A DNA stretch of 53,972 nt. Source: Clostridia bacterium (lineage in GTDB: Bacteria > Bacillota > Clostridia > Oscillospirales > Acutalibacteraceae). Location of the stretch: assembly GCA_017466205.1 (NCBI GenBank), contig JAFTUP010000199.1, positions 1-53,972 of the forward strand. Direction: 5' to 3'. Each line of letters starts with the position of its first letter. Position 1 is the stretch's first letter. Made by a program: the position numbers and the translations under genes. Below are positions 19,191 through 33,810 of this stretch, one piece after another. A model generated the notes under the pieces. The model was not told the origin of the DNA. It did no database searches and worked only from the letters and a program-made list of their open reading frames with translations.

Positions 19191-20927
19191 CTATTGTTTC
19201 TCCAATGTACCATCTTCCATGATTTTATAAACGGCTTTGCAATATTTAAGCATACTCTCCCTGTGAGTTGTAATAAGTCTAACCTGCTTCGGCTCAGATA
19301 CCATAATATTTTCAAGAACCTGTGACTCTGTCTGCGAATCGAGTGCAGATGTAGCCTCATCCATAAGCAATACAAGTGATTTTCTGAGAAGAGACCTGGC
19401 AATTGCCAATCGTTGAAGCTGACCTTGTGAAAAATTTGCTCCGTGCTCGTTAAGCTCTGTTTGTATTCCTTGCGGAAGAGAGTTTATTAAAGAAGAAAGC
19501 TCTGCCTGATGCAATACATTTTGCAATTCCTCATCTGTGGCATCATTTTTTACTATTCGCAGATTATCCTCAATGGTACCGGAAAATACACCTATATCCT
19601 GCGGAACATAGGAACAAAAGCGCCTTGTACTGTCTGAAGCATTTATAGATTCACCCTGTGAAGTCGTGAAAACTATTTCACCCTCCGTAGGCTCAAGCAA
19701 ACCTAAAATCAGCTTAAATATTGTAGTTTTTCCCTCACCGGATGCACCGATAAGTGCAATAGTTTCACCAGGTAATACTTTAAAATCTATATTCTTAAGA
19801 ACAGGTGCTTCTCCATCGTCATATTTAAAAGAAACATTTTTAAACTCGATTCCCACACCTGTATTTTTAGCCTTATCAATAATTTCAAAAGCTTTTTCTC
19901 TTTGAGCATCCTTTTCTGTTTTAAAGCTTGTTATTTCCATAATTCTGCCGGCAGAGGTTGCCACAGATATAGCACTTGGCGCCAACGAAGCCAACGAATT
20001 AAAAGAAGATGAAAGCGTACCTGAAATTTGTAAAAACAGAGTCATTGTACCATAGGTAATAGCACCCTGCCACAATCGGTAAACACCCCAACCATAGCAA
20101 AAATACGAAACAACCATACCGATAACAGAAAAGCACAGGGTCATTAATATATTGAACTTTTCGTATTCAAGGCGAGTTTGCCTGTAGGTATTAAGTAATT
20201 TTGAAAAATTATTAATGTAATCCTTAGTAAGGTCAAACGCCTTGATAATTTGAATATTCTGAACAGACTCCTCCGAGTATGACAAAACATCACCGTTGAT
20301 TTTTTTCGTTTCTTGGCTGTATTTCCTTATAGTTTTAACCAACAGTCTGGATGAAATAAAGAAGAAAGGTGCACCGAGAAGTGCCAGCACAGCCATAGTT
20401 TTATCATAGTAAAGCACTATGGCCAAAGAGCCGAAAAACTGAACAAATCGTGTAATGGCACTTGGTATAAACCCTATAACACCCGACGAAACAGTTGAAA
20501 CATCTCTCTCAAGTCTGTTGATTAAATCTCCGGAATGGTATTTGCCGATTTCCTGCCAGTCAGCAGTAACAATATGCGAATAAATATCCTCTCTTATTTC
20601 GTTATCGACCTTTGAGTTCACATTGGCGGTTATCCAGGAGGATACCGATGAGAAAAGAAACTGAAAAACAGTAAGTGCAATAACAAGTGTAGCGGAAGTA
20701 ATCAGCTGCTCCTTAGTATGTGAAACAACTGAATCAATAAGATATTTTGATGCAACAGAAACGCACAACGACATAACAGTTGAAATAAAGCCAAATAAAA
20801 TATAGATAAAACACATAAGTCTATATTTTTTTGCATATCTTATTATCCACTTCCACTCATTTAACATATTCGCAATAAGAGTGGTGAATTTTTCAGATTT
20901 TCTCATCATTCTCTGCCCTTCAAACAT
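19191..20927 (-). CDS. MsbA-like ABC exporter half-transporter (6-TM domain + NBD)
   Basis: Walker A GASGEGKTT, signature FSQGQLQRLAIAR, Walker B LLMDEATSALD. An alternative start is ATG at 20909. Confidence 0.85.
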   Translation of the reverse strand: MFEGQRMMRKSEKFTTLIANMLNEWKWIIRYAKKYRLMCFIYILFGFISTVMSLCVSVASKYLIDSVVSHTKEQLITSATLVIALTVFQFLFSSVSSWITANVNSKVDNEIREDIYSHIVTADWQEIGKYHSGDLINRLERDVSTVSSGVIGFIPSAITRFVQFFGSLAIVLYYDKTMAVLALLGAPFFFISSRLLVKTIRKYSQETKKINGDVLSYSEESVQNIQIIKAFDLTKDYINNFSKLLNTYRQTRLEYEKFNILMTLCFSVIGMVVSYFCYGWGVYRLWQGAITYGTMTLFLQISGTLSSSFNSLASLAPSAISVATSAGRIMEITSFKTEKDAQREKAFEIIDKAKNTGVGIEFKNVSFKYDDGEAPVLKNIDFKVLPGETIALIGASGEGKTTIFKLILGLLEPTEGEIVFTTSQGESINASDSTRRFCSYVPQDIGVFSGTIEDNLRIVKNDATDEELQNVLHQAELSSLINSLPQGIQTELNEHGANFSQGQLQRLAIARSLLRKSLVLLMDEATSALDSQTESQVLENIMVSEPKQVRLITTHRESMLKYCKAVYKIMEDGTLEKQ

Positions 20928-22440
20928 CTAAATCATCATCAAAACGGAAACCATAACCATATTCCTCGGCATTACCGTATTTGCCATATTTACCATACTT
21001 GCCACCGTATTTACTGTATTTACCATACTTACCGTAGCTCTTGTAATAGCCATATTTATTATAAGCCTTGTAGTAACCATAACCCATAATACTCGTTTGA
21101 GCACCATTTAAAACACAACCTAAAATTTCAGAATCGGTGGAAATTATCGAATCTAAGCCATCCTGAATTTTAGAAATTCTTACAGTATCCTGTAAAATCA
21201 CATATAAAACGCCATCTGCAGCCTGTGCCACAAACATAGCATCCGAAGTAATGCCACACGGTGCTGTATCGACAAAAACCAAGTCATAATCCACCTTAAC
21301 AGAGGAGAAAATGTCTGCCAGATTATCGCTGTTAACAATCTCTTTCGCATCTCCGGTGGCAACAAGTGTCATCACATAAATTTTATACTTCTCAAGATAT
21401 GCGATTTTGTACTTATCCGTAACAATTGAATATTCTAACTCATCCTCGTTAACCCTGAGTGCTTTTAACACACCGGGACTATTCAGAGCACAATCCACGA
21501 TAAGCACCTTTTTGCCTATTATTCCAAAGGATATTGCCATATTTACGCAAACAGTTGTTTTGCCTTCACCTGCAATGGTGCTTGTAACGGCAACAACTTT
21601 TTTATCTTCCTTCAGCATTTTTTTGATAATAGTTCTTAATGTCCTTATACTATCAGGAAATCTGTCATCGGTTAAATTACCGTTAATAAGCAGGGGCTCT
21701 GCACCCTCTTTTGAGTTTTTCTTAAGAATAATATGCGGAATAATACCCAAACACTTAATATTAAGATTATTTCTTATATCCTTTTTAGTGCGAACCGTAG
21801 TTCTTAAAACTGTATAACAAAGCAGAAGAATCAGGCCTAAAATCAAGCCATAGGTAACACTCTTAAATGCCTCGTCAAAATAGGCAGGCTTGTTATAAGG
21901 CTCTTCCGGCAAAACAGGACTTCTGATAACATTAAACTTAATATTACCAACAACATATTTTGCAATTTCAGGATAATTTTCCATAGTGCTGATAAGTGCA
22001 TCATAAGTCAACTGCGGTTCATAGCCCTCTGCTCTTAATGTAAACATATTTGAACCCGAAACAGATGACGCTGTCAGGCTGACAGGTATTGAGGATAAAT
22101 GCAAATCAGCTGCCACCGCATCCTGTAACAATTTACTGCTTAAAATACCGGGAAATGTTGAAGAAAGGTGGGAGGCTGTTGAAGCATCATAATAGAAATT
22201 ATACGCAGAAATTCCGTTTATAGAGGAAGCTCTGTCCTGTGTGCTTACAGTAAAAGTAACCTCAGCACTATACTTTGGTATATAGCTTCTGTGACACTTA
22301 AAAACTGAAAAAACACAGCACACCACACAAACAATTGCAATAACCCACCAGAACTTTTTAAAGCCACGACAAAAATCGCTGAAGTAAAAGGATACGTTAT
22401 CTTCCTCGTTAAATTGTAATCCACTTTCGTTCATACTCAT
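20920..22440 (-). CDS. Fused Wzz-like chain-length domain + BY-kinase-like P-loop domain with a very long Tyr-rich tail and a degenerate Walker A'
   Basis: Two TM helices flank an extracytoplasmic domain. Walker A AGEGKTT, Walker B DLVFVDTAP. The Walker A' region reads VLIVDCALNSPG and lacks the second Asp. The C-terminus is GYGYYKAYNKYGYYKSYGKYGKYSKYGGKYGKYGKYGNAEEYGYG. Confidence 0.8.
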   Translation of the reverse strand: MSMNESGLQFNEEDNVSFYFSDFCRGFKKFWWVIAIVCVVCCVFSVFKCHRSYIPKYSAEVTFTVSTQDRASSINGISAYNFYYDASTASHLSSTFPGILSSKLLQDAVAADLHLSSIPVSLTASSVSGSNMFTLRAEGYEPQLTYDALISTMENYPEIAKYVVGNIKFNVIRSPVLPEEPYNKPAYFDEAFKSVTYGLILGLILLLCYTVLRTTVRTKKDIRNNLNIKCLGIIPHIILKKNSKEGAEPLLINGNLTDDRFPDSIRTLRTIIKKMLKEDKKVVAVTSTIAGEGKTTVCVNMAISFGIIGKKVLIVDCALNSPGVLKALRVNEDELEYSIVTDKYKIAYLEKYKIYVMTLVATGDAKEIVNSDNLADIFSSVKVDYDLVFVDTAPCGITSDAMFVAQAADGVLYVILQDTVRISKIQDGLDSIISTDSEILGCVLNGAQTSIMGYGYYKAYNKYGYYKSYGKYGKYSKYGGKYGKYGKYGNAEEYGYGFRFDDDLDV

Positions 22441-22477
22441 TCTTGTAATCTTCCTTTTTTCGGATTAGAGATAATAG

Positions 22478-23887
22478 TTAACCATTTAAACGCCATTTAC
22501 TACGAGAGTATTTGCTGTCATCACCGGCACCTGTAAATGATGCCACAGGTAAATCCGGGTGAGTATCATTAAGAATGCAGCCTGCCAGATTACCGCCGAC
22601 GTCTGTAACAGTTAAAATAGCATCGTTTATTGTAGTAGTTTCAACAACATCTGTTTTTACCACAAGTATAGTCTTATCTGCCGCTTTAATAATTTCATTT
22701 ACAGATGAGTCGACAGAAATAGGTGCCGTGTCAATTACAACATAGTCCACCATTTTCCTGAGAACCTTAATTGTATCTTTAGCCGCACCGCTTTCAATCC
22801 ACTTGTAGCTGTCTGCGTATGGGCGGGTATTAATAGCTAAATACAGATTGGTCTTTTTATACCGTCTTAATCTATAGTTATTTTTTGAGCTTTCACCATT
22901 AAAGAACAAGCCTAATTCGGAATTTTCTTCATAAGTGCAACCAAAAAGCTTATAGATGGCTGGTTTTTTTCCATCCATATCCATTAAAACAACCTTTTTA
23001 CCCTTGCGTGCAAGAGAAAGTGCCAGGTTTGAAGCAATTGTTGATTTACCCTCGTTTTCCGCGAAGCTTGTAACAACAAAAACTTTTGAACCATCCCGCA
23101 TTTTCTGGTGCTCAATTTTCGCCACAATCCTGTTAAACGACTCGATATACCTCGTACTTATAAAAGCATTGCCTTCAATAAGCAATCCCTTTTTCTTCTT
23201 TGAAATCAGGTCTTTTATTGTTCTGTGTTTGTTTTCGTGAGGAATACACCCCAAAAGCTTTCCGCTCACCCTATTCTTGAAATCTTTCTCACTTTTCACC
23301 GTATCTCTGAACACAGAAAAAACAATAATTGCACCGGTACTGATTAAACCGATTAAAAACAATGTTTTGGTTTTACTGTGCTGTAAACCAACGCTTGATG
23401 GTACAGAGGACATTGAAGGATACTTCAAAATAGTAATTACCGAATTTTCAAAAACTTCTTCAGAAATATTAGGGTAAACCTGCAAAATAGCATTAAGAAG
23501 CTCGTAGGATCTTTGGGGACTGTCAGAAACAACGCTTATATTTATAAAGTTTGTATCCGGTAATACAGTTGCGGTAATTTTGCCGTCAAACTTTTCAAGA
23601 CCAAGGTATTCGGCAGCCTCTTTTTCCATAGTGGGCTCGGAAAAAACATTTGAAAAAACCTCTGCCATTTCAGAAGAAACACTATACGTGGACATTGTAC
23701 TTGATGAAGAGCCCTTCACATTAACAACAACTGTTGCTGTCGAAGTGTATTCCGGCTTGTAAATGCTGTACTCAGCAATATATATGCCCATAACTCCTAT
23801 AAGAAGGCATAACAAAACCACCCAGATGTTTCTTAATAAATCTCTGAGGACACTATAATATTCAATTGAAATTTTGCCTTTTCTCAT
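22478..23887 (-). CDS. Fused Wzz-like chain-length domain + BY-kinase P-loop domain (canonical motifs, no Tyr cluster)
   Basis: Walker A AENEGKST, Walker A' VVLMDMDGKKP, Walker B YVVIDTAP. The C-terminal tail has only one Tyr. Confidence 0.8.
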   Translation of the reverse strand: MRKGKISIEYYSVLRDLLRNIWVVLLCLLIGVMGIYIAEYSIYKPEYTSTATVVVNVKGSSSSTMSTYSVSSEMAEVFSNVFSEPTMEKEAAEYLGLEKFDGKITATVLPDTNFINISVVSDSPQRSYELLNAILQVYPNISEEVFENSVITILKYPSMSSVPSSVGLQHSKTKTLFLIGLISTGAIIVFSVFRDTVKSEKDFKNRVSGKLLGCIPHENKHRTIKDLISKKKKGLLIEGNAFISTRYIESFNRIVAKIEHQKMRDGSKVFVVTSFAENEGKSTIASNLALSLARKGKKVVLMDMDGKKPAIYKLFGCTYEENSELGLFFNGESSKNNYRLRRYKKTNLYLAINTRPYADSYKWIESGAAKDTIKVLRKMVDYVVIDTAPISVDSSVNEIIKAADKTILVVKTDVVETTTINDAILTVTDVGGNLAGCILNDTHPDLPVASFTGAGDDSKYSRSKWRLNG

Positions 23888-23915
23888 CGAAATTACTCTC
23901 CCGGAATAAGTTTTA

Positions 23916-24731
23916 TCACTCTACAACAACATTCAAAACGGAATGACCCTCTGCTCCATTCCTGTCTGTAACGAAATAATTGACAATATAGGTTCCGCTT
24001 TTTTGAATTTCCACATTATCATCTATGCGGACATTAGAGGTTAAATCTTCGCCATTTTTACTTGTTGCTTCGACTATGTAATCTTTAAAATTAACATTCT
24101 GATTTTTATCAACATAAATCAGGTATTCCTTAAGCTCGATTTTTGGAGCTGAAAGGCTTCTTTCTTCCATAATCAACGGAAGAGAAAGAGTTGATGTGTC
24201 TCCTTTTTTATTGGTAACGGTAAGATCAAGAGTGAACACACCCGTTACTGACGAGGTGTAATCAGGGCTTGTTATAACAACATTCCCGGAAATATCACCT
24301 TCAATGCAATCTACAGCACCGACATACGAGGAAATATTTACATTTTCATAAAGAGAAAAGCACAGACTGTCTGTTACCTTAAACCTCGGTGCAATATAAT
24401 CTGTATAGCAAACCTTTCTTGTAGCATGAGCAACATGGTTATTGCTGTCACAGACCGCATATTTAACCTCACAGACACCGGGCTCAATAAATCTTGAAAT
24501 AGATTCAACAATAACCTTGTCAGTCAGGTCTCCGTCCTTTTCGTCCGTGGCTTTAACACCTTTAAGAAAGTCCGCATCGGAAGCATTGCACTTCACTTCA
24601 ATAAAGTCATTTTCTATTGTGATTTCTGGTACGGTATCATCCTCATTTGTCTTCTGAAGAAAGAAGACAACAGAAAAAGATATCAGAGTAACAATAAAAA
24701 CAATTATTACAGAATTTCGCATTATTCGCAT
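23916..24731 (-). CDS. Membrane-anchored protein with Ig-like (DUF5011-type) repeats; first gene of the glycan locus
   Basis: N-terminal TM helix. ATDEKDGDLTDKV and the repeated beta-rich modules are typical of bacterial Ig-like domains. GGGAGAG RBS lies before the ATG at 24731. Confidence 0.65.
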   Translation of the reverse strand: MRIMRNSVIIVFIVTLISFSVVFFLQKTNEDDTVPEITIENDFIEVKCNASDADFLKGVKATDEKDGDLTDKVIVESISRFIEPGVCEVKYAVCDSNNHVAHATRKVCYTDYIAPRFKVTDSLCFSLYENVNISSYVGAVDCIEGDISGNVVITSPDYTSSVTGVFTLDLTVTNKKGDTSTLSLPLIMEERSLSAPKIELKEYLIYVDKNQNVNFKDYIVEATSKNGEDLTSNVRIDDNVEIQKSGTYIVNYFVTDRNGAEGHSVLNVVVE

Positions 24732-24781
24732 AAAATCTCTCCCAAATTACGCAATACGACATTTTATTTATAGTTAATTTC

Positions 24782-24810
24782 ATTTTACCATACAAAATAT
24801 CCAAACGCAA
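24782..24810 (-). promoter_or_regulatory. Putative SigA-type promoter of the glycan locus
   Basis: On the minus strand: TTGCGT (24810-24805), 17 nt, TGgTAAAAT extended -10 (-10 hexamer at 24787-24782). Confidence 0.4.
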
Positions 24811-24852
24811 GGGAAATCCCTCAATTAAATATATATTTATATACATTAAGGC

Positions 24853-24892
24853 ACAAAAAAAGGACTTCGTGACAAATACTTGCCACGAAGTC
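24853..24892 (-). terminator. Rho-independent terminator ending the rSAM/giant-protein/76-aa operon
   Basis: gacttcgtg (24863-24871) pairs with cacgaagtc (24884-24892). On the minus strand the stem is followed by CTTTTTTTGTG. Confidence 0.8.
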
Positions 24893-24909
24893 TTTTAAAA
24901 AGTTGATTT

Positions 24910-25140
24910 TTATGAAAGGAATCCTTGTTCACTACCTAATTCAACAGAAGTGAATTTGCAGTAGTAGTCAATCGGAACTTTTGTTTCACAAGCTTCATTC
25001 ATACCAAAGATTTTATCAGCATCGTATCCTTCACCGAGAATATCAGCAATAAGCTCCAAATCCACCTGTACAAGGCAAGTGCTTGGGCTACCTACAGCAG
25101 CTGAAGCGAATACGAGTGTAGGTTTAAAATAATTTTTCAT
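24910..25140 (-). CDS. 76-aa acidic, 3-Cys small protein of unknown family; candidate modified peptide
   Basis: GGAGG lies 10 nt upstream of the ATG and overlaps the stop codon of the giant gene (ttttaaGGAGGtattggtgatATG). A terminator follows directly. The sequence ends ...CETKVPIDYYCKFTSVELGSEQGFLS. Confidence 0.7.
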   Translation of the reverse strand: MKNYFKPTLVFASAAVGSPSTCLVQVDLELIADILGEGYDADKIFGMNEACETKVPIDYYCKFTSVELGSEQGFLS

Positions 25141-25155
25141 ATCACCAATACCTCC

Positions 25156-28100
25156 TTAAAATAAATTTGCAAAAGATGCGAAAAGCTTTTTGAAGAAAGC
25201 GGAGATTTTTGCGAAGATGCTGTCCATAACATCAGGAACTTCGATAACACTACCGCCGTTATTGTTATTACCGTTATCATCACTCGGCTCATCAGCATCC
25301 GGAACATCAACCTCAGGCTCCTGTGTATTATTGTCAACAACAGCATTGTAATCATAAGAGTTAGGCTCAACTGTTGTTGGCTCAACAGAAAGTGACATTG
25401 CCATAAGAGTTAAATCTTCACTTGCAACTACCTGAGCTGTTGCATCAACAAGCTTAAGGTTGTTTACGCTAAGAAGTCCATCACCTGTATTTGTAATAAT
25501 AACATTAGCTTTACCTGTAGTTGTATCAATATCGAGGTAAGGAGTGATGTCAAAATACTGCTCTGTTGCTGTATTTATGTCAAATGTAATAGCATTTTCA
25601 CCTGAAGCAACCTTTGTCGTAGTAGCACCGTCAACTGCACGAAGGCTGATCATAACTCTTGAATCAGCATTAGGAACAGTAACATTGAATGCAACAGCGT
25701 GTGAACCGTCAGTATCTGTTGCTTTCTGTAAGTAAAGCTCGTGCTGAGGACCAACTGACTGATAGTTTGCAAATGTGAGTGTTTGTGCATTGCCATTTTC
25801 GTCGGCTGCAAGCTCACCTACAACATACGCGAACAAGCCGCTGTCACTTGTAATTGTGTTACCTTCACCAGATGCTAATTCACCAACGATATTGTAGTAT
25901 GTAGCACCCTTTTCAGAGTCAATGTAAAGTGAAGAATCTTCACCAAGAGGATTATAAACACGGATACCGTCGATATAGCAATCAAGCTCAACATCTGTAG
26001 TTGTTGTTGCACGAGTACCTGAAACTGTATGAGCAACAGGACCTGTACCACCGTTAAGAATTGAGTTGTCATTGAACCAGATGTATTCAATTTCATCTGC
26101 AGGAACATCAATCTTCATAGCCTTGAGGAGACTTTCAACAGTATATCCGTCACTGTTGAACATACCTGCGAGTGAAGAACGAGTACCTGAAAGAGCATTA
26201 GCAGTTGAAAGGTAAGCTGCTGTAACTTCAACAGTATATGTACCGTATCCGCCTGCGTTTGTATAGTTAATAATCGGAACCTGCTTAAGAAGAGCACCGT
26301 CATAGTTTTCTGTATCTACATAATATGTATCAACCATGAAGACCTTTTCGATTTCACCTGCAGCATTCTTGATGTTAACCATCTGAATACCTGTAGTCTT
26401 ACCGCATGCAGCCATAAGGTCGAAGCCTGTACCTGTGTAGCTGAATGTCATAGTTTCGCTACGCTTTGTTGTTGAATTAACAGTTGTCTTGTATACAGTA
26501 CCGTTAGAATAGCCTGCACCGTTACTTGCGTAAACATCATCATAACCGTAACGGTCGTTGTCACCTGAAAGTGTCTGATATGTTTCAAGAGCTGTACCGT
26601 CTAATGTCCAATTTGACTTAGCTAAAGAACCAGCTGTTGAAGCAGTAAATCTCTGTTCCTCAAAAAGAACGTTAGAAGCAGGAACAATATTGATTCTGAA
26701 CCAGTCATAAGTTCCGTCATCACGCTGAATGAGACAGTATGAGCGATTATCAGCTTCAGTATATGCACCTGATACAAGCTCATAAGTCATATCAAGATTG
26801 CTGTTAGCAAATTTGAGTGCAACATTGGATGTTTCACGAGTTGTCTTATATGTTGACTGCTTATTAAGTCCGCCGTCAACAGAGAGAAGAGTACCGTTAA
26901 TATCGCTGTCGTACATAGGCATATCGTAGTCGAGAACATAAGTGTACTCAGGGATATTAAAGTATTCTGTCGGGAAATACTTAAATGCGTCAGTAAGTGC
27001 TGTATCTTTATAGATAGCAGTTGTTGCAGTATTGTTGATTGAAGTATTTGTAATGTTTGCATCTTCGTCAGCAAGCACACCCTCAATCTTTATTTTAAGC
27101 TTACGACCTGTTTTAGACTGTGAAACATATTCAGTAGCGTAGTTATAACCTGTAACAGAAATAGCTCTTGTGTCACTGACAGATGTTGTAACATTTGCAG
27201 TAGATGCTACAATTTCTTCACCCTTGAATGTGAATCGTTCAACAGCGTCGAAGTTACCTTCTACAAGTGTAGTTGTGATTGTAATACCATCAAGAAGATT
27301 ACCGTTTGCGTCTGCAATAGGCTTAAATGCTTCATTAAGTTCTTCGAAAAGGATGGATGAAGCAGAAAGATTTGAAAGACCAACAGCCTCGTTCTTGGTG
27401 ATTTCTCGGCCGGCTATCGAGCTAAAATTAAGGAAGTTGTCCATTGAAGTGTTCGCCATGTTGATAACATATTCAACACCGTCAATGTTTCCACCGCCCA
27501 AAGATGTCAAAGTTGTAGCCGCAGGATACTTGGAAGAAACAGCCTCCATATATGTGTTCTTGTCCCAGCTGTCGTTATCAGCACCAACGATAATACTGTA
27601 AATAAACGCACCGTTTGTATTTTTCAGTGTGTTTGCTTTTGCGATAACATTATTTGCGGCAGTGGTTATGTTAGCACCATCATAAGCACCCGGAACACCG
27701 TCGGACATAAAGATGATTGCAAGGTTTCTATCGCCGTCTGCATCATAAGTTGAACCGGAATTTGCAACAATGTTCTGTGCAAACTGAAGCTCCATACCTG
27801 TGTTGTCAGACTGCTGACCACTTGATGCAACATTAGCAATCTGTGTTTTGATTGTAGAAGCGTTTGATGCACTCCAGAGAGCATCTGTAAAGCCTGATGT
27901 TGCCCATGAACTGCTTGTATTGAGGTAAGATGCTGAACCGCCATATGTTGTAACAGCGATTCTGTTATCTGAACCTTCTGCTGCAATCTGGTCAACAATA
28001 TCTGCAGCCTTTTCCTTGATTGTGTACATTGGTGTCTGGTAACCGTTTTCATTAGCTGTTATGAATTTGTAGTATGTACCATTATAAATCTTACAGTTCT

Positions 28101-30672
28101 GACGATTACCATTAGTTGTACTTTGAGCTTCAGCAGAATAGTTTGTGCCGGCATCAACATTTGTAATGAACTCAGTTCTTGTCCATGTCTGTATTGCTGA
28201 GATACCTGCGTTAGTAACACCGGGCAATACATAATAAAGTCCGTCATCGGCAACATAATATGTCCAAATCTTCTGGTGATATGTTCCACCTATACCCAAG
28301 AAACCGCCTGTTTTTGCCTGTGTATTAATAGCTACGTGAATTCGGTAATAGTTACCATCTGAGTGCTTGTAATATAACGCTTCATTGGTAAATGCGTATC
28401 CGTAAACACCGGTACCATTATCATCAGATGTTATCGACGTCGATGCCATCTGTGAAAGTGTTATGTCACCACTGTTTTCCTGAATACCTGTACCGTCGGA
28501 ACCGTCGTTAACAGATTCTGAAGTATCCATTACGATGATAAAGTCAGTAGGTCTTTCACCAACATACTGATACTGGTTTGGTGAAATTGCGTAAGTTTCA
28601 AGGTCGATAGTATATGTACCGTTAGACTGAAGCTCAGCCTGCATATCCGTATAAACACGGCTTTCGTAAGTTGTTGCAGTTTTGTCAACAACACGCTTGT
28701 AAATATAGAAAACACCATGGTCAAATGTTGTAACTTGGCCGCCCAATACGTTTGAACCTGTACCGTTCAAGCCGTCTGTATGGAATGTACCCGGCTGTTC
28801 TGTTACACCTGAATACATTGCAACGGTACTATCTGTATAATATTTATTATATGCGGTGTTATAGCTTTCTGTTGTACCGTCATTACACCAGAGGTAATAT
28901 CCGCCACCGGAAATGTAGAAGCCGCCTTTGCCGTTTTCCGCAAGAACCATACTTGTTCCGCGGGCATTATCCGTTGCCATTGCAATGCTTGTTGCATCAC
29001 AATAGAAATTAGGATAATTACTATAAGTATATTCATTATTCTTTATACTGTATGCACCGCTGCCCAATGAAGTTAATTCCCAACGAATATTTCTTACATC
29101 ATCTTTTTCAGCGTTGGTAAGGTAAAGCTTGCCACCTTCAACAGAATACTCAGTAATAGCGTGGCCGATTGCACCTGCATAACCGGCTGCATTATTCTGA
29201 TCACGCTTTGAAAGATTATAGTGCTGATAACCACCATGTGAATCGATTGCATAAAGAATAGGCATCTGAGTAACAGGATCCTTTTCAGATGATTCGTAAA
29301 CGATAATATAATCCTCACCGTCAACAATCTCTGAAAGGCTTGTTACAGGCTCATAATGAAGAGCATTATTATCCTCTGTTTTAACCATATTCTGAAGTGC
29401 ATAAGGGTCAATTTTCCAGATAACGTCAACCGGCTTTTCGCAGTTACCGATAGATGTTACTCCACTGCTTTCGTTCATATACTTATTTGAAGCACCTTCG
29501 AAAGTACAGAAAATAAGATCATTGATAACGCAAAGACCTTCTGACATAGGCATCATTTCATAGGTTTCATACTCTTCAATTACATATCCCTTTACAGTCT
29601 TTGTTGTGCTGTTATCACTGCTTGTGCTGATAGTCAGTTCCTTTGTAGGGATTGCACTAAGGTCAATATCAGAAACAATAAGCTTACTTGTTTCACCAAA
29701 GCCGAAGCTAACTGAGTTACCGGCACCTGAACCGTAAGAACAACTTAAATAAAGCTTACCGCTGTCAACAACCGCATACTGAACATCCTTGATGTTGTTG
29801 TTAAGAGCGATAGTATGAGTTGGATTGCTTCGGCTGTCAGTAGCACCACTCTTAAGGTTATTCCATTCTTCTTCAGATGTTGAACCCTGAAGCTTATAAC
29901 CGAAAACCATGGAGTTATACTGTGAGTTTGCAGGAGCATTATAATCGTCCGCTGCAATGGTCACACCGGCAAGCTTAGCACCTAAATCGTAGAAATTACC
30001 CATCCAAAGATAGCCTTGGTCATAGCAAACATAAGCAGTATAAGCAGTCTTACTGTCACTTGTTACAGAACCAACCTCGTAGAACTCAATTTCATCTACG
30101 AGCTGAACAACTCTATGTTCACCCTCTGCGATACCGTCAAGTGCTGAAATAGGAGCATAAGCAATACTTCTATCAGTATCACCACATGAGTAGTAAATAT
30201 TGTTTTCTGAGAAAGCAATACCGCCACCGTGGTCCATATTTACTGTACCGTCTACGTTAAGGAATGAAAGCATTGCAACGAAATCACCTGTTGCAGCATC
30301 AAGGCAGAATGCCTTACTGGAAGCTGTTCCATCATTATGGTATGCAGTAACAATCATCCAGTCCTTTTCAGGATAATATGTCATACCCTGAACAACGTAG
30401 TCCTGAGTAGCATTAAGACCCGGAATAACAATATCTGTTGCCTCACCGGCACCATTCAGATAATAGTTTTTGTAGTTTGCGTAGTCTGTTGCATAATCAG
30501 TAACAACACGCTCCTGCGTAATTGTTTCGTTTGTGCCGTCACTTGTTGTAATTGTGCCTGCAGCACCTACATCAATCTTCATAAACGGAAGACCGATAGC
30601 TACAATCCCTATAAGAATAGCGAATGTAAGCAACAAGGACATGCCCTTTTTTAACATTCTTTTCTTTTTCAT
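25156..30672 (-). CDS. 1838-aa secreted multidomain protein with a VWA (MIDAS) domain carrying a large insertion; adhesin-like
   Basis: GGAGGT lies 8 nt before the ATG at 30672 (MKKKRMLKKGMSLLLTFAILIGIVAIGL signal/anchor). VWA motifs are DFIIVMDTSES ... NRIAVTTYGGSA ... LAIIFMSDGVPG. Propeller-like, lectin-like and jelly-roll-like regions are present. There is no LPXTG. The C-terminus is DSIFAKISAFFKKLFASFANLF. Confidence 0.85.
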   Translation of the reverse strand: MKKKRMLKKGMSLLLTFAILIGIVAIGLPFMKIDVGAAGTITTSDGTNETITQERVVTDYATDYANYKNYYLNGAGEATDIVIPGLNATQDYVVQGMTYYPEKDWMIVTAYHNDGTASSKAFCLDAATGDFVAMLSFLNVDGTVNMDHGGGIAFSENNIYYSCGDTDRSIAYAPISALDGIAEGEHRVVQLVDEIEFYEVGSVTSDSKTAYTAYVCYDQGYLWMGNFYDLGAKLAGVTIAADDYNAPANSQYNSMVFGYKLQGSTSEEEWNNLKSGATDSRSNPTHTIALNNNIKDVQYAVVDSGKLYLSCSYGSGAGNSVSFGFGETSKLIVSDIDLSAIPTKELTISTSSDNSTTKTVKGYVIEEYETYEMMPMSEGLCVINDLIFCTFEGASNKYMNESSGVTSIGNCEKPVDVIWKIDPYALQNMVKTEDNNALHYEPVTSLSEIVDGEDYIIVYESSEKDPVTQMPILYAIDSHGGYQHYNLSKRDQNNAAGYAGAIGHAITEYSVEGGKLYLTNAEKDDVRNIRWELTSLGSGAYSIKNNEYTYSNYPNFYCDATSIAMATDNARGTSMVLAENGKGGFYISGGGYYLWCNDGTTESYNTAYNKYYTDSTVAMYSGVTEQPGTFHTDGLNGTGSNVLGGQVTTFDHGVFYIYKRVVDKTATTYESRVYTDMQAELQSNGTYTIDLETYAISPNQYQYVGERPTDFIIVMDTSESVNDGSDGTGIQENSGDITLSQMASTSITSDDNGTGVYGYAFTNEALYYKHSDGNYYRIHVAINTQAKTGGFLGIGGTYHQKIWTYYVADDGLYYVLPGVTNAGISAIQTWTRTEFITNVDAGTNYSAEAQSTTNGNRQNCKIYNGTYYKFITANENGYQTPMYTIKEKAADIVDQIAAEGSDNRIAVTTYGGSASYLNTSSSWATSGFTDALWSASNASTIKTQIANVASSGQQSDNTGMELQFAQNIVANSGSTYDADGDRNLAIIFMSDGVPGAYDGANITTAANNVIAKANTLKNTNGAFIYSIIVGADNDSWDKNTYMEAVSSKYPAATTLTSLGGGNIDGVEYVINMANTSMDNFLNFSSIAGREITKNEAVGLSNLSASSILFEELNEAFKPIADANGNLLDGITITTTLVEGNFDAVERFTFKGEEIVASTANVTTSVSDTRAISVTGYNYATEYVSQSKTGRKLKIKIEGVLADEDANITNTSINNTATTAIYKDTALTDAFKYFPTEYFNIPEYTYVLDYDMPMYDSDINGTLLSVDGGLNKQSTYKTTRETSNVALKFANSNLDMTYELVSGAYTEADNRSYCLIQRDDGTYDWFRINIVPASNVLFEEQRFTASTAGSLAKSNWTLDGTALETYQTLSGDNDRYGYDDVYASNGAGYSNGTVYKTTVNSTTKRSETMTFSYTGTGFDLMAACGKTTGIQMVNIKNAAGEIEKVFMVDTYYVDTENYDGALLKQVPIINYTNAGGYGTYTVEVTAAYLSTANALSGTRSSLAGMFNSDGYTVESLLKAMKIDVPADEIEYIWFNDNSILNGGTGPVAHTVSGTRATTTTDVELDCYIDGIRVYNPLGEDSSLYIDSEKGATYYNIVGELASGEGNTITSDSGLFAYVVGELAADENGNAQTLTFANYQSVGPQHELYLQKATDTDGSHAVAFNVTVPNADSRVMISLRAVDGATTTKVASGENAITFDINTATEQYFDITPYLDIDTTTGKANVIITNTGDGLLSVNNLKLVDATAQVVASEDLTLMAMSLSVEPTTVEPNSYDYNAVVDNNTQEPEVDVPDADEPSDDNGNNNNGGSVIEVPDVMDSIFAKISAFFKKLFASFANLF

Positions 30673-30804
30673 GTTCATTACCTCCATTTTTTTCAAATGA
30701 AAATATTTTTTACAAATTCGAAATCCGAATTTGCTTATTTCTTTGTTTATGTTCCGCGAAGACTTATAATAAGCACAACACGGTGCGGTTTTGCGTTTAT
30801 AAAT

Positions 30805-31899
30805 TTACTTTATCCCGAATTTTTGCATTTCCTTGCAGTATGCTTTCGCCTTTCGACACACATATTCGGGTACTTTGGAGAAGCTGCCTGTCTCCGCAAA
30901 GGAAACTGCTGCACAAATATCACAATGCTTTCGATATTCGCAATTTTTACATTCTCCGGGCAATTTTATTTCTTCACGTGCTTGGTTGATATTCTCCCAG
31001 GCAGTGTTAAAATCTTTAATTTCAACGGAAGGCTCTGTCATCATTCCGCAAGGTGTCATTTTACCGTCGTAGGTAACCCAGAATGAGCTTAACCCTGCCC
31101 TGCAGGATATACCCTCACATTCATCTGTAAGAAACTCACGCTTTTGCTTTGGTTCATCTTTTTTGTCGGATTTCAGCAGCTCTGCAAGAACTTCTTCACC
31201 AAGACTTTTCAGTTTATAATCAAAAGCAAGCCTTGCAGCCTCTTCCGCACTCAGTCTGAATGCTTCACCGCTTGCTCGTACAGGAGCGAAAACATAGCTG
31301 ACAACCTTCATTCCTATGCCCAAAGCCTCGGCATAAGCTCTTGCTTTACTCAGATCATCTTTATTAAGAGGCGTTATGGTGTAATTAAATCGAATATTCA
31401 CACCATTGTTCTTCAAGCCCTCAACAGCATATTTGACCTTTTCGTAAGCACTCTCATCTCCGCAAAGGTCTGCATAAGTCTTTGCAGAGCAACCATAGAG
31501 GGTTATATTAATCCTCTGTGGAGGATAAGTTTTAAAAAACTCTATATACTCATCGTCAATCAATGTGGCGTTAGTATTTATATTTACAAGAAAGCCCATT
31601 TCCCTGAGTTTCAGGTAAAGCTCTTTAAAATCACTCCTGACGAGTGGCTCACCACCCGTTAACAGCAAATTCAATGTGCCCCTTTTTTTACATTCCTCCG
31701 CAAGGTTCAACCACCACTCGGTAGGCTTTTCCCGGCTTTGCGCCTCCTTGTTGCAAATGCCCTTATGTATGTAGCACATTTTACAATCCAAGGTGCACCT
31801 GGGAGTCAGCTCAAAGGTACCTGCAAGAGGTATTCTGCCCAAATCGGCTTTCATAAAAAGCTTGTTTATAAATAAATTGTACGCATTTTCCATAAGCAA
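30805..31899 (-). CDS. Radical SAM enzyme with a C-terminal SPASM-type auxiliary-cluster domain (peptide-maturase-like, no fused RRE)
   Basis: CTLDCKMCY (CX3CX2C) sits about 35 aa from the N-terminus, and GGEPL is present. C-terminal Cys pattern: CRAGLSSFWVTYDGKMTPC ... CKNCEYRKHCDICAA. The ORF-track start is a TTG; ATG at 31893 is an alternative. Confidence 0.85.
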   Translation of the reverse strand: MLMENAYNLFINKLFMKADLGRIPLAGTFELTPRCTLDCKMCYIHKGICNKEAQSREKPTEWWLNLAEECKKRGTLNLLLTGGEPLVRSDFKELYLKLREMGFLVNINTNATLIDDEYIEFFKTYPPQRINITLYGCSAKTYADLCGDESAYEKVKYAVEGLKNNGVNIRFNYTITPLNKDDLSKARAYAEALGIGMKVVSYVFAPVRASGEAFRLSAEEAARLAFDYKLKSLGEEVLAELLKSDKKDEPKQKREFLTDECEGISCRAGLSSFWVTYDGKMTPCGMMTEPSVEIKDFNTAWENINQAREEIKLPGECKNCEYRKHCDICAAVSFAETGSFSKVPEYVCRKAKAYCKEMQKFGIK

Positions 31900-31905
31900 T
31901 TACTG

Positions 31906-32751
31906 TTATTCGTTTTCCAATGCCGATTTCAAAGCCTCTACCGCACGCTCATCCGGTGTGCAATCCAAATGATAAACGTTAACCGCACTGAGAATTCTGT
32001 TTATTAATTCAACACATTTCACAGGCACTCCGGGAGTTTGCATATCTATATATGTGTTGCCCAGAATCGCCTGCAGACCACGAACAGCAGTCAGCTTTTT
32101 AACGATATTCTGTGGGCTTTGACCCAGCTCAACTATTGCTTTAAGCGGTAGCTTTTTGTTCTCACAAATTCCGCTTGTACCGCAAAACGGTACTCCACAA
32201 GCATAAACCTTATTATCTATGCAACACAATCCTGCTTTATCACCATTGATTACCGTTGCTCCGCCAAACCTACGCCAAAGCTCCGCCTGGGTGCTTTTGC
32301 CCGTTCCGCTTGGTGCGGTGAACAATATTGCCTCACCGTCCACCTCTATAAAAGAGGCGTGCATCAATAGTGAATCAAAATACAGAAGAGACTCCGCCAG
32401 ACCGATTGTACTCCACATATAACGCTCGTCCATAAGGGTTTTAAAGCTGCCTTCGGCAAAGGTTATTTCCTTTTGCGATAAATCATCCGTCGTTGCTTTT
32501 ATAACAGCACCATCAGCGGAACCCATATATATGCGCTTATAAAGCATATTTTCCGCAGTACAATAGTCACACTCGCCTCTTTTTGACCATTCGCCGTTTA
32601 TTTCGGGCAAATTCTCGGTAACTCTGCACTCTACGGTTATATCTGACTTTGCGGATTCTACAAGAAACTTTTTCCAATTTTCGGAATCAGCCGGAAAGAA
32701 AGGAGCACTGAGACTCAATAACTTTCCGCATATAGAATAATTCCTCAGCAT
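31906..32751 (-). CDS. HPr-kinase-C-domain-like P-loop protein (ScmC / HprK-related-kinase type)
   Basis: HASFIEVDGEAILFTAPSGTGKSTQAELW is a P-loop in HprK-like context. GGGAGAG RBS is present. The stop lies 6 nt before the rSAM start. Confidence 0.7.
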   Translation of the reverse strand: MLRNYSICGKLLSLSAPFFPADSENWKKFLVESAKSDITVECRVTENLPEINGEWSKRGECDYCTAENMLYKRIYMGSADGAVIKATTDDLSQKEITFAEGSFKTLMDERYMWSTIGLAESLLYFDSLLMHASFIEVDGEAILFTAPSGTGKSTQAELWRRFGGATVINGDKAGLCCIDNKVYACGVPFCGTSGICENKKLPLKAIVELGQSPQNIVKKLTAVRGLQAILGNTYIDMQTPGVPVKCVELINRILSAVNVYHLDCTPDERAVEALKSALENE

Positions 32752-32786
32752 CCGCTACTCTCCCACTGTCTCATGATATATAGGTC

Positions 32787-32815
32787 ATTCTAACACACTT
32801 TAAAACATTTGTCAA
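32787..32815 (-). promoter_or_regulatory. Strong SigA-type promoter for the HprK-like/rSAM operon
   Basis: On the minus strand: TTGACA (32815-32810), 17 nt, TGtTAGAAT (-10 at 32792-32787), about 35 nt upstream of the ATG at 32751. Confidence 0.6.
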
Positions 32816-32907
32816 CTACTGATTATTTTTATCTTCTGTTCTGTGGGTGCTGTTATTACAATGCTCAGGGAAAATCGCTTTTAATTGCTCTGATTTTATA
32901 ATTCAAT

Positions 32908-32936
32908 TTGCTATTTTATCAGAAATGTGCTAATAT
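32908..32936 (+). promoter_or_regulatory. Putative promoter of the PqqD-like gene
   Basis: TTGCTA (32908-32913), 17 nt, TGcTAATAT (-10 at 32931-32936). Confidence 0.5.
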
Positions 32937-32969
32937 TGATGATAATATCTTAAATGAAAGGTGATTTTT

Positions 32970-33245
32970 ATGACCAACGAAACCTTTAAAATTAAATCCG
33001 GATATGTTTTAAGAGAGATTGAAGGCGAATTTTTGGCAATTCCCTTTGCACCGGAGCTTAATTCATCAAATATTATAATTCTCAACCCTGTAAGCGGACT
33101 CCTTTGGGAAAAACTCCAAAGTAAATGTACTCTCTCACAGCTTGTTAAGGCTGTTACCGAGAATTTTACGATTGATGAGGCAACCGCACAAAGTGATATT
33201 GAAGAATTTTTGCAAATGCTTAAAGAAAACGATATGCTTGAATAA
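32970..33245 (+). CDS. Stand-alone PqqD-family protein (RiPP recognition element / peptide chaperone)
   Basis: YVLREIEGEFLAIP...ILNPVSGLLWEKLQSKCTLSQLVKAVTENFTIDEATAQSDIEEFLQMLKENDML matches the PqqD pattern. AAAGGTGA RBS lies before the ATG at 32970; the ORF-track GTG is at 32961. Confidence 0.85.
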   Translation: MTNETFKIKSGYVLREIEGEFLAIPFAPELNSSNIIILNPVSGLLWEKLQSKCTLSQLVKAVTENFTIDEATAQSDIEEFLQMLKENDMLE

Positions 33246-33332
33246 CTTGCAGGATTATTAGCAACAAAGGTATTCTCTTTTTTCTATTACATTATATATT
33301 AAGCAATTATATATGCTGATTTTACGCAAATA

Positions 33333-33371
33333 AAGTGCCGGAACCGTGATAAATCTATGGTTTCGGCACTT
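33333..33371. terminator. Bidirectional hairpin after the PqqD-like gene
   Basis: aagtgccggaacc (33333-33345) pairs with ggtttcggcactt (33359-33371), with one G-U pair. Both flanks are T-rich. Confidence 0.55.
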
Positions 33372-33374
33372 TAA

Positions 33375-33600
33375 TCATTTATTTTCTTTTGCAGTGTTTA
33401 AAATAGAAATTAAAATCATTTTTATTTCAAGGCAATCATTAAGTAGTGATTCGCCCTCTTTTTCATTTATGTATTCAGATAAAATCAACAGTCGCAACCA
33501 ATACTCCGTTTCTGCAGTTTCTTTAAGTGATATTTGTAATTTTGCAATAAAATCGGTTGTGACGCAAGTGATTAGCGATATAACTCGCCAAAGGCGAATA
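33375..33600 (-). pseudogene. Start-less C-terminal remnant of a four-helix-bundle protein gene (23S rRNA-intervening-sequence-protein family)
   Basis: Minus-strand frame ending at the TGA (33377-33375) reads ...DFIAKLQISLKETAETEYWLRLLILSEYINEKEGESLLNDCLEIKMILISILNTAKENK. The ETEYWL.LL motif is typical of that family. There is no in-frame start for a full-length protein, and the frame runs open into the tRNA. Confidence 0.5.
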
Positions 33601-33642
33601 TAACTGAAAAAACTCTTATTCTTTCGAACAAGAGTTTTTTTC

Positions 33643-33717
33643 TGGCACCCCCTGCGGGAATCGAACCCACATCTAATCCTTAGGAGGGATTTATTCTATC
33701 CATTGAACTAAGGAGGC
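33643..33717 (-). tRNA. tRNA-Arg (anticodon CCT), CCA encoded
   Basis: Hand-folded cloverleaf: acceptor GCCTCCT/AGGGGGT (2 G-U pairs), D stem GTTC/GAAT, anticodon stem AATCC/GGATT with loop CTCCTAA, T arm GTGGG-TTCGATT-CCCGC, discriminator G, CCA. Confidence 0.85.
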
Positions 33718-33730
33718 ATATATGTTCAGT

Positions 33731-33810
33731 GTCATTCTGAGCGAAGCAAAAGCAGTGCAGGCGTGGAAGCCTGCCACTACGCGATCGTCTTTTTTTCTCC
33801 TCAGAATGAC
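33731..33810. repeat. GC-rich palindromic intergenic repeat (gtcattctgag ... ctcagaatgac type)
   Basis: Arms 33731-33741 and 33800-33810 are exact inverted repeats. The inner hairpin is gcaggc-gtggaa-gcctgc. The 27-nt core 33757-33783 recurs inverted at 43270-43296 (26/27). Confidence 0.7.

Follow-up and report, generated by a model that had tools for sequence, protein, structure and literature searches.

Organization of the locus

We analyzed a 53,972-nucleotide (nt) stretch of a Clostridia bacterium of the family Acutalibacteraceae (GCA_017466205.1, JAFTUP010000199.1 positions 1 to 53,972), referred to here as the window, which contains a five-gene set encoding a 76-amino-acid (aa) peptide, a very large secreted protein (the giant), a radical S-adenosylmethionine enzyme with a SPASM cysteine cluster (rSAM/SPASM), a P-loop protein resembling ScmC, and a stand-alone PqqD-family RiPP recognition element (RRE), where RiPP denotes a peptide that is ribosomally synthesized and then modified after translation. 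Our results suggest, with moderate confidence, that the set serves specifically to mature the 76-aa peptide in the manner of a RiPP, is coupled genetically to the giant surface protein, and usually heads an exopolysaccharide (EPS) locus. In the open reading frame (ORF) map, the peptide, giant, rSAM, and P-loop genes all lie on the minus strand, and the PqqD gene is divergent on the plus strand. The original prediction, made from the letters of this DNA, had assigned positions to these five genes as well as to a promoter, the gaps, and a terminator, and the ORF map together with a signal scan recovered every one of them in place. The core components are as follows.

24910..25140, minus strand: 76-aa precursor-like peptide with a YxxPxL leader (Y4, P7, L9) and invariant C22, F45, C51, C61, and S76
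25156..30672, minus strand: giant secreted protein with an N-terminal signal-like segment, 1838 aa from the ATG at 30672
25363..26697, minus strand: conserved C-terminal module of the giant (about aa 1326-1770), the sole part common to all giant variants
30805..31899, minus strand: rSAM/SPASM enzyme, 364 aa from TTG or 362 aa from the ATG at 31893; PF04055 at 1.4e-23
31906..32751, minus strand: ScmC-like P-loop protein of the HprK/PEPCK fold, 281 aa, with an APSGTGKST motif; PF27840 (ScmC) in the precomputed annotation
32961..33245, plus strand: stand-alone PqqD-family RRE, probable start at ATG 32970 (91 aa); PF05402 at 5.5e-14

A conserved family of small peptides

A profile search with the peptide family returned 292 clusters in public data, all of 72-90 aa and none with a Pfam family, the few named members being called hypothetical, and no curated family in Pfam or NCBIfam matched the peptide itself. 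The consensus reads M-x-x-Y-x-K-P-x-[LIV] … S-C … F-x-x-x-E-x-C … Y-C-K-F-[TS] … F-x-S-COOH. Among the 119 clusters listed (of the 292), the leader motif YxxPx[LVIFAM] was found in 118 and a C-terminal serine in all 119, the latter contrasting with 18 of 202 other small ORFs of the same loci, and the number of cysteines was three in 55 clusters and four in 59. The terminal serine was also present in each of the 50 peptides encoded next to a giant. Identity among homologues fell to about 25%, with the pairing to a giant retained. The motif [Y/W]xxPx[L/V/I/F/A] is the one recognized by the discrete RREs of lasso peptides and of linear polyphosphorylated peptides (LPP), and its YxxP part is essential to the binding of the LPP precursor by LppB (PMC13381572). 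The original prediction had named three possible substrates for the maturation enzymes, namely the peptide, the giant, or something encoded elsewhere; because of the YxxPx[L] leader, the three invariant cysteines, and the invariant C-terminal serine, the evidence now favors the 76-aa peptide.

Some of the related loci (L followed by a number, from the genome scan presented below) carry a second cassette of ScmC-like and rSAM genes (plus PqqD), which lies either at the distal end of the EPS locus or in convergent orientation to the first cassette (L017:3-2046, L044:3-2064, and L028:18534-20699, all on the minus strand). The second cassettes of L017 and L044 lack a giant and contain a YxxP peptide of 56-65 aa with two cysteines between the rSAM and ScmC-like genes, which in L017 ends in …GFVS. 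Because these giant-less cassettes keep the YxxP peptide, it is the peptide, not the giant, that forms the common denominator of the maturases.

A separate variation was seen in a four-cysteine subfamily of the peptide with the sequence …CYHVP…, in which a predicted lipoprotein of 221-240 aa, belonging to no known family, always lies between the peptide and ScmC-like genes (L073:9269-9991, L086:10344-11039, and L084:10299-10964). This lipoprotein may be a further component of the …CYHVP… variant.

Linkage of the peptide to the giant protein

Scanning genomes with an alignment of the ScmC-like family yielded 80 species-level loci, almost all in metagenome-assembled genomes (MAGs) of Acutalibacteraceae, Candidatus Fimenecus, and Oscillospiraceae from animal guts, the closest relatives of the window showing 80-87% identity, which suggests a Fimenecus-like member of the Acutalibacteraceae as its source. 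As revealed by tblastn and ORF clustering, the recurring gene order was ScmC-like, rSAM, giant (about 1,500-2,950 aa), and a small ORF (66-90 aa), after which a CpsB phosphatase, an Ig-like protein, and two Wzz/kinase genes often come. The rSAM gene adjoined the ScmC-like gene in nearly all 80 loci, at a distance of 6-40 nt. An alternative order was present in more distant loci, where the giant, the small ORF, sometimes a lipoprotein, the ScmC-like gene, and the rSAM gene were followed by PqqD or an ABC exporter. NCBI labels on the homologues were limited to hypothetical protein, radical SAM protein, and PqqD family protein.

A census made independently of the earlier ORF selection covered every stop-to-stop ORF of 1300 aa or more for which downstream sequence was available, 52 in all, and in 50 cases a YxxP small ORF followed at -4 to +34 nt; the two exceptions lay on the strand opposite to the ScmC-like gene and apart from the module. 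The linkage persisted through the change of gene order, through the exchange of N-terminal domains (VWA, GH20, Listeria-Bacteroides repeats, Big_3), and down to an identity of 32-35% between ScmC-like proteins. In the reverse direction, starting from distant peptide homologues, the set was recovered each time. L084, which lies outside an EPS locus, encodes a giant of 2953 aa, the peptide, a protein of 221 aa, an unannotated protein of 276 aa at the place of the ScmC-like one, rSAM, and PqqD; L086 encodes a GH20 giant, the peptide, the lipoprotein, ScmC-like, rSAM, and PqqD; and L088 encodes a GH20 giant, the peptide, ScmC-like, rSAM, an ABC exporter, a 155-aa protein, PqqD, CpsB, an Ig-like protein, and two Wzz. 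The functional tie that the original prediction had drawn between the maturases and the giant and 76-aa genes is thus strengthened by their co-occurrence across about 80 species-level genomes, which is the opposite of the result that the prediction itself had named as speaking against such a tie.

The ORF of the giant extends over 25156-30696, which corresponds to 1846 aa from TTG and 1836 aa from the best-spaced ATG. Its description in the original prediction as a secreted VWA protein was only partly sustained: the signal-like segment is present, and the DTSES (DxSxS, resembling a metal ion-dependent adhesion site) and SDG motifs are visible, but the VWA domain remained below the Pfam threshold (PF00092, E 0.011, 16.5 bits against a cutoff of 23.8, a split match at aa 889-1037). 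The related giant of L073 passed this threshold with 24.6 bits. No sequence homologue of the giant was found in the PDB, and orthologues with 32-68% identity were present in 30 loci.

The N-terminal parts of the giants differ, consisting of VWA, Listeria-Bacteroides repeats with Big_3, Big_3 with VWA, or a GH20 catalytic domain, and in loci whose giants otherwise differ, tblastn still detected matches to residues 1326-1838 of the window protein (~450-500 residues). The alignment of this C-terminal module (A2) contains 12 invariant columns, and a cysteine within an SACGxxTG motif is near-invariant (30 of 32 sequences); neither Pfam nor the PDB gave a sequence match to the module. A model built from a 14-sequence alignment, with a mean predicted local distance difference test score (pLDDT) of 52, was beta-rich with a helix at the end, and its fold matches were CBM36, carbohydrate-binding modules (CBMs) of xylanases, and the domain III jelly rolls of Cry toxins, at template modeling (TM) scores below 0.2 relative to the query. 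These matches give a hint that the module could be a jelly roll of the carbohydrate-binding kind. The giant closes with the following element.

25159..25224, minus strand: C-terminal amphipathic helix tail …IFAKISAFFKKLFASFANLF, after an acidic linker; helix 505-526 in the module model

Most of the related giants likewise end in an acidic or proline-rich linker and an amphipathic helix. In four related loci, an S8 subtilase beside the cassette has a similar tail (…FFQKLISFFKNLF…), as in L041:4285-6105 on the minus strand, and this tail may be a shared element for anchoring to the surface or membrane. At the other end of the protein, many orthologous giants (L018, L025, L028, L041, L043, L055, L057, L060, and L063) contain ~500-600 nt of unmatched sequence after the part corresponding to the first ~275 residues of the window giant, which implies either a domain inserted after residue ~275 or a modular N-terminal unit.

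The predicted maturation enzymes

The ScmC-like protein was matched among curated NCBIfam families by ScmC (TIGR04249) and HprK-related kinase A (TIGR04352) only, both below cutoff, with scores of 23.8 bits against 125 (E 2.4e-5, residues 128-183 only) and 18.6 bits against 200, respectively, and PF07475 (Hpr_kinase_C) gave an E value of 0.048. The HprK-like character claimed in the original prediction was borne out by the fold: an AlphaFold (AF2) model from a 32-sequence alignment reached a pLDDT of 95.7, and the best 50 PDB matches found by Foldseek were all PEPCK or HprK/P (E 4e-7 to 7e-5). When the family profile was compared with the PDB, HprK/P was the sole kinase-family match, spanning His131, the GKST of the P-loop, and NGD; the P-loop, His131, and Asp171 are invariant and align with catalytic positions of HprK/P. 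The model also contains an extra N-terminal beta domain of ~110 residues. We regard the protein as a putative peptide serine kinase. The word orphan, which the original prediction had applied to the cassette, had to be dropped, because the P-loop protein had 6,527 representative relatives at E <= 1e-3 (3,828 at E <= 1e-10) in an exhaustive HMMER search. One distant representative, P0101, lies on a contig of 959 nt and is uninformative.

For the rSAM enzyme, the expectation of a SPASM-type cysteine cluster without an N-terminal RRE was confirmed, with no RRE ahead of the rSAM core, which begins at residue ~29. The CX3CX2C motif and seven SPASM cysteines were kept in 74-76 of 76 homologues. Against NCBIfam, the enzyme aligned over its full length with the SPASM families AhbD, NirJ2, ScmE, PqqE, and PapB, all far below cutoff, as were all curated maturase models (PapB, 59.6 bits against 340), and QhpD was absent from the best 25 NCBIfam matches. 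The closest solved structure was SkfB, a thioether-forming sactisynthase (4.6e-13), with CteB and PapB also detectable.

The PqqD protein found its best NCBIfam matches in the lasso PqqD chaperone (NF033536, 3.7e-8) and ScmD (1.5e-7; 31.6 bits against a cutoff of 100), both below cutoff, and TIGR04353, the PqqD partner of the HPr-rel-A system, was not among its matches. Relatives of this protein also match lasso PqqD chaperones best among the curated families. Of the 86 related loci, 48 have a PqqD homologue at most 10 kb away.

Signals, boundaries, and genomic setting

The following features frame the module.

32815-32787, minus strand: sigma-70-type promoter-like site, TTGACA-17-(TG)TAGAAT, upstream of the ScmC-like gene, with 11/12 consensus matches
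30673..30804, minus strand: spacer of 132 nt between the rSAM and giant genes, with an 8-bp hairpin at 30713-30733 that lacks a clear minus-strand T tract
24853..24892, minus strand: intrinsic terminator-like hairpin and T run at the operon end; hairpin 24892-24863 with a 13-pair stem (6 GC pairs), then CTTTTTTTGT
33643-33717, minus strand: tRNA-Arg(CCT) from Rfam, directly upstream of the module

The promoter-like site, a consensus match only, was the top scorer across 24500-33800. The sequence shows 6 nt between the stop of the P-loop gene and the TTG of the rSAM gene, and a GGAGG ahead of the 76-aa ORF abuts the TAA of the giant gene. The original prediction had seen no terminator in the 132-nt gap, and the 8-bp hairpin listed above is all that our scan detected there. 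It had also assigned an own promoter to the divergent PqqD/RRE gene; the PqqD identity and the isolated orientation were upheld, this being the sole credible plus-strand gene from ~500 to 42271, but the promoter stayed below the threshold of the promoter scan.

An Rfam search for non-coding RNA in the gaps gave the tRNA, which the original prediction had not mentioned, and nothing else. The tRNA-Arg(CCT) gene is flanked by its own terminator hairpin (33607-33640, minus strand) and by an 18-pair terminator-like hairpin of the PqqD gene (33331-33373, plus strand). The GC content of the module (26-32 kb) is 0.40-0.41, slightly above the 0.33-0.38 of the flanks. The idea of a genomic island, suggested by the neighboring tRNA and the raised GC content, was set aside, since many genomes show the set in synteny with the EPS locus, and a plasmid origin was likewise dropped after a megablast search against PLSDB gave no match. 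In at least seven related loci (L009, L030, L032, L033, L036, L045, and L059; e.g., L032:12052-12495), a gene of 116-167 aa, which by eye resembles DUF559/Vsr-type endonucleases, is inserted at the rSAM/giant junction or at the ScmC-like/rSAM junction. Insertions near this position show that the rSAM/giant junction tolerates them, and the pattern resembles that of a site repeatedly invaded by a selfish element.

The adjoining exopolysaccharide locus

Downstream of the module lies an EPS locus, which also contains glycosyltransferases.

19191..20927, minus strand: MsbA-like ABC exporter, 578 aa, without a peptidase domain, inside the EPS operon (ABC_membrane 3.1e-38, ABC_tran 1.2e-28)
20920..24731, minus strand: head of the EPS locus, with an Ig-like membrane protein (271 aa) and two Wzz/tyrosine-autokinase fusions (469 and 506 aa); PF16403, Wzz, AAA_31, TIGR01007

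The two Wzz plus tyrosine-autokinase genes are tandem paralogues (20920-23887, minus strand). EPS markers accompanied the module in 34 of the 47 long related loci. The MsbA-like protein is a candidate exporter of the 76-aa peptide; many related loci have its orthologue directly beside the ScmC-like gene, and in 41 of 86 it is no more than 10 kb away. Searches of the window by tblastn or Pfam found no leader peptidase, CpsB, or S8 peptidase. A gene for the CpsB/PHP tyrosine phosphatase, missing from the window, is located between the small peptide and Ig-like genes in 36 of 86 related loci. In some relatives, the interval from the ABC to the PqqD gene encodes proteins of 155-172 aa with sub-threshold matches to signal peptidase I of the archaeal type (SpI) (3e-6, 2e-4), among them the gene of L088 (TIGR02228 at 3e-6); such SpI-like genes were present in 10 of 86 related loci, and tblastn of the window with the SpI-like proteins gave no match.

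At least nine related loci contain, directly adjoining the ABC exporter and divergent from the ScmC-like gene, a gene pair for a galactokinase-like GHMP kinase and a sugar-1-phosphate nucleotidyltransferase (PF00483) (L020, L034, L037, L041, L042, L046, L047, and L057 among them; e.g., L046:3070-3807 and L020:6835-8037). The pair does not occur in the window, where tblastn with the sugar-1-phosphate NTP_transferase of the related loci (which is not LppN/PsmN) was without a match, a search that did not extend to the PsmN/LppN type itself. The pair could be a source of activated sugar for the EPS or for decoration of the peptide.

Proposed pathway and alternative explanations

We infer the chemical steps, the route of export, and the partnership of peptide and giant as follows. 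The stand-alone PqqD would bind the N-terminal YxxPxL leader of the 76-aa peptide. The rSAM/SPASM enzyme would act on the three invariant cysteines, intramolecular thioethers being the likeliest outcome, as in sactipeptides, ranthipeptides, and QhpC, and the ScmC-like enzyme of the HprK fold, with ATP, would phosphorylate a serine, most likely Ser76, as PadeK does in paeninodin and PsmK in pseudomycoidin. The product would then be carried out by the MsbA-like ABC exporter of the EPS operon, its leader would be removed by a peptidase encoded elsewhere, and the conserved core of ~50 residues would work with the C-terminal module of the giant outside the cell, near the capsule.

Several observations weigh against this reading. 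The core of the peptide is long and well conserved, which is atypical of RiPP natural products, and no leader peptidase is evident in the window. PqqD was not present within ±10 kb in 22 of the 47 long related loci. The chemistry of the rSAM enzyme cannot be read from homology, because its top curated scores belong to heme-pathway enzymes (AhbD, 112 bits; NirJ2, 81 bits), not to peptide maturases, and every match is far below cutoff. The relationship of the ScmC-like protein to HprK is remote (profile E 0.27; TM 0.25-0.5), and the protein has NGD where HprK and PsmK have DD. Finally, the C-terminal module yielded no confident fold (pLDDT 52), and gene adjacency is the one pointer to the role of the giant.

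The conserved peptide core bears directly on the idea that the system makes an ordinary stand-alone RiPP, such as a ranthipeptide-like quorum signal or a bacteriocin, to which the giant and the EPS genes are neighbors by inherited synteny only. All the usual parts are there, namely an RRE, an rSAM/SPASM enzyme, a tailoring enzyme, an ABC exporter, and a leader-bearing cysteine peptide; most loci come from a single taxonomic order, so that common ancestry inflates the co-occurrence counts, and EPS markers are missing from some loci, such as L084. Nevertheless, we consider this explanation unlikely, given that the spacing between giant and peptide keeps to the range of -4 to +34 nt in all 50 cases, that their adjacency holds at 32-35% ScmC-like and about 25% peptide identity, and that it survives rearrangement of the gene order and exchange of the N-terminal domains with only the C-terminal module retained; a core that is conserved and not hypervariable argues in the same direction. 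A further alternative would be that the maturases modify the giant itself, within its C-terminal module and prior to Sec export, as anSME does with sulfatases, and that the 76-aa protein is an accessory or chaperone. The module is indeed the sole region common to the giants and has the near-invariant cysteine of the SACGxxTG motif, rSAM/SPASM enzymes such as anSME can modify full-length proteins, and giant and cassette are always linked in related loci. Yet the YxxPxL leader of the RRE type is on the small peptide and not on the giant, which has an N-terminal signal sequence and no recognizable leader; the cassettes of L017 and L044 that lack a giant still encode a YxxP…S peptide, placed between rSAM and ScmC-like; and the three cysteines and terminal serine of the peptide are invariant over the 119 listed clusters. 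Taken together, these points make the giant an improbable substrate.

The role of the ScmC-like protein allows a different doubt, namely that it is not a serine kinase and instead serves as an ATP-dependent partner of the rSAM enzyme, whether as a scaffold or as an activator that adenylylates or phosphorylates carboxylates, with the terminal serine serving otherwise, as a signal for export or processing or as the point of attachment to a glycan or to the giant. The remote similarity to HprK without the DD pair would fit such a role, as would the N-terminal beta domain of ~110 residues, which has no assigned role, the constant adjacency of the ScmC-like and rSAM genes at 6-40 nt, and the naming of the ScmC and HprK-rel-A families in NCBIfam as cassette proteins only. 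The invariance of the P-loop, His131, and Asp171, aligned with the catalytic positions of HprK/P, speaks for a kinase, however, and all characterized HprK-like enzymes of RiPP pathways are serine kinases, two of which act on a C-terminal serine; a non-kinase function, including either of the other uses of the serine, therefore seems to us rather doubtful.

We thus retain the maturation of the 76-aa peptide in partnership with the giant as the preferred reading. One conjectural extension of it, which we rate as very improbable in this specific form, is that, once exported, the cross-linked phospho-serine peptide is extended with or attached to the EPS of the adjoining locus and that its core docks on the CBM-like module of giants that are otherwise unrelated (adhesins, a GH20 glycosidase), tethering them to the capsule. 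PsmN, which adds hexoses onto the phosphate of pseudomycoidin, offers a precedent for the extension of phospho-serine. If true, such tethering would constitute a previously unrecognized surface-display system of Gram-positive gut anaerobes.

Implications

For one large branch of the cassettes combining HprK-related, PqqD, and rSAM proteins, a candidate precursor family has now been identified, with testable sites in Y4/P7, the three cysteines, and the terminal serine. The pairing with giants whose only common part is a C-terminal module speaks for a role of this RiPP-type pathway in the biology of the cell surface or capsule and not in the making of an antibiotic. The system is common in Clostridia of animal and human guts (MAGs of Acutalibacteraceae/Oscillospiraceae), where the peptide clusters, numbering in the hundreds, and the ScmC-like representatives, numbering in the thousands, are all annotated as hypothetical. 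It also extends an observation of 2026, that of peptide clusters with HprK-like and RRE proteins in capsule loci, to another bacterial class and adds radical chemistry to it.

Comparison with known systems

Cassettes with an HprK-related protein, PqqD, and an rSAM/SPASM enzyme were reportedly predicted by Haft and Basu in 2011, and to our knowledge the products and precursors of the SynChlorMet and HPr-rel-A cassettes have not been identified so far. The window set resembles SynChlorMet (TIGR04248-04251) and HPr-rel-A (TIGR04352-04353) in combining an HprK-related P-loop protein, a PqqD homologue, and an rSAM/SPASM enzyme. The original prediction had named these two as known cassettes with such a combination; membership in either was rejected, as the curated cutoffs were missed widely by the ScmC, ScmD, and HprK_rel_A scores given above. 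Unlike SynChlorMet, which has ScmE and ScmF, the window set has one rSAM gene and not two (79.2 and 56.1 bits, respectively, against 400), and unlike both systems, it has an identifiable precursor family and a giant partner.

Similar to the sactipeptide and ranthipeptide systems of SkfB, CteB, and PapB, an rSAM/SPASM enzyme with intact cluster cysteines is found together with a cysteine-bearing precursor that has a leader. Different from them are the separate RRE, which is usually fused N-terminally in those enzymes, the scores below cutoff, the long and conserved core of the precursor, and the additional presence of an HprK-fold enzyme and a giant partner.

A parallel for the handling of a small cysteine-bearing protein exists in the maturation of the gamma subunit of quinohemoprotein amine dehydrogenase, QhpC, a subunit of ~80 aa whose three cysteines are thioether-cross-linked by the rSAM/SPASM enzyme QhpD, followed by ABC export and assembly with large extracytoplasmic subunits encoded alongside. 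We draw on QhpC/QhpD/QhpF as a functional analogy only. The window peptide has no tryptophan for a quinone cofactor, there are no heme subunits, a Gram-positive surface protein stands in the place of a periplasmic enzyme, and the set includes an extra kinase-like enzyme and an RRE.

Among described systems, the closest is LPP, and the LPP and paeninodin clusters in the capsule loci of Bacilli are the nearest counterparts overall. The searched literature yielded no paper joining HPr kinase, SPASM, and PqqD, and neither the peptide family nor its pairing with the giant was found in searchable literature and family databases. The paeninodin and pseudomycoidin pathways share with the window an HprK-related enzyme, a C-terminal serine, a PqqD-like RRE (B1 there), and an ABC exporter. 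Their HprK-like kinases phosphorylate the C-terminal serine, and PsmN adds hexoses to the phosphate (PMC6993621); clusters of this type are often near capsule loci (PMC13381572, PMC6993621). Unlike them, the window has no lasso cyclase (C) or B2 peptidase domain in the operon or in the scanned neighbor proteins, cross-linking would be performed by the rSAM/SPASM enzyme, and the P-loop protein belongs to the ScmC family (PF27840), not to Hpr_kinase_C (PF07475).

In Bacilli, LPP clusters occur inside capsular polysaccharide loci and combine a discrete RRE with an HprK-like kinase, an MsbA-like exporter, a SipW-like signal peptidase I, and an NTP transferase; their YxxP-leader precursors are polyphosphorylated on Ser3 (Popov et al. 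2026, PMC13381572). The window shares with them a discrete RRE, an HprK-fold enzyme, and an MsbA-like exporter (by family or fold and not by orthology to LppK, LppB, and LppD), the N-terminal YxxPx[V/L] motif (the LPP precursors being of 35-200 aa), and a capsule locus with a neighboring tyrosine autokinase; moreover, the SpI-like gene between the ABC and PqqD genes of L088 mirrors the LppD/LppS/LppB arrangement. The extended LPP leader YxxPxVLxHQxIxFETxxS is present only in its YxxPx[L] part, and no SpI-like gene corresponding to LppS was found in the window. The LPP cores are variable and phosphorylated on Ser3, whereas the core of the window peptide is conserved, with three invariant cysteines and a terminal serine. 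An rSAM/SPASM gene, invariant here, is not listed for LPP, whose products are described as linear and whose paper leaves radical SAM enzymes unmentioned (PMC13381572), and no giant partner is described for LPP. The original prediction knew of no precedent for RiPP-type maturases placed within an adhesin-like operon, which holds in part: clusters of HprK-like and RRE genes do occur in the capsule loci of Bacilli (PMC13381572), but these are without rSAM or giant. Relative to such RRE-dependent, HprK-like-tailored pathways of capsule loci, what is new here is the rSAM/SPASM enzyme, the Cys3…Ser-COOH peptide family, and the coupling to giants (50/52).

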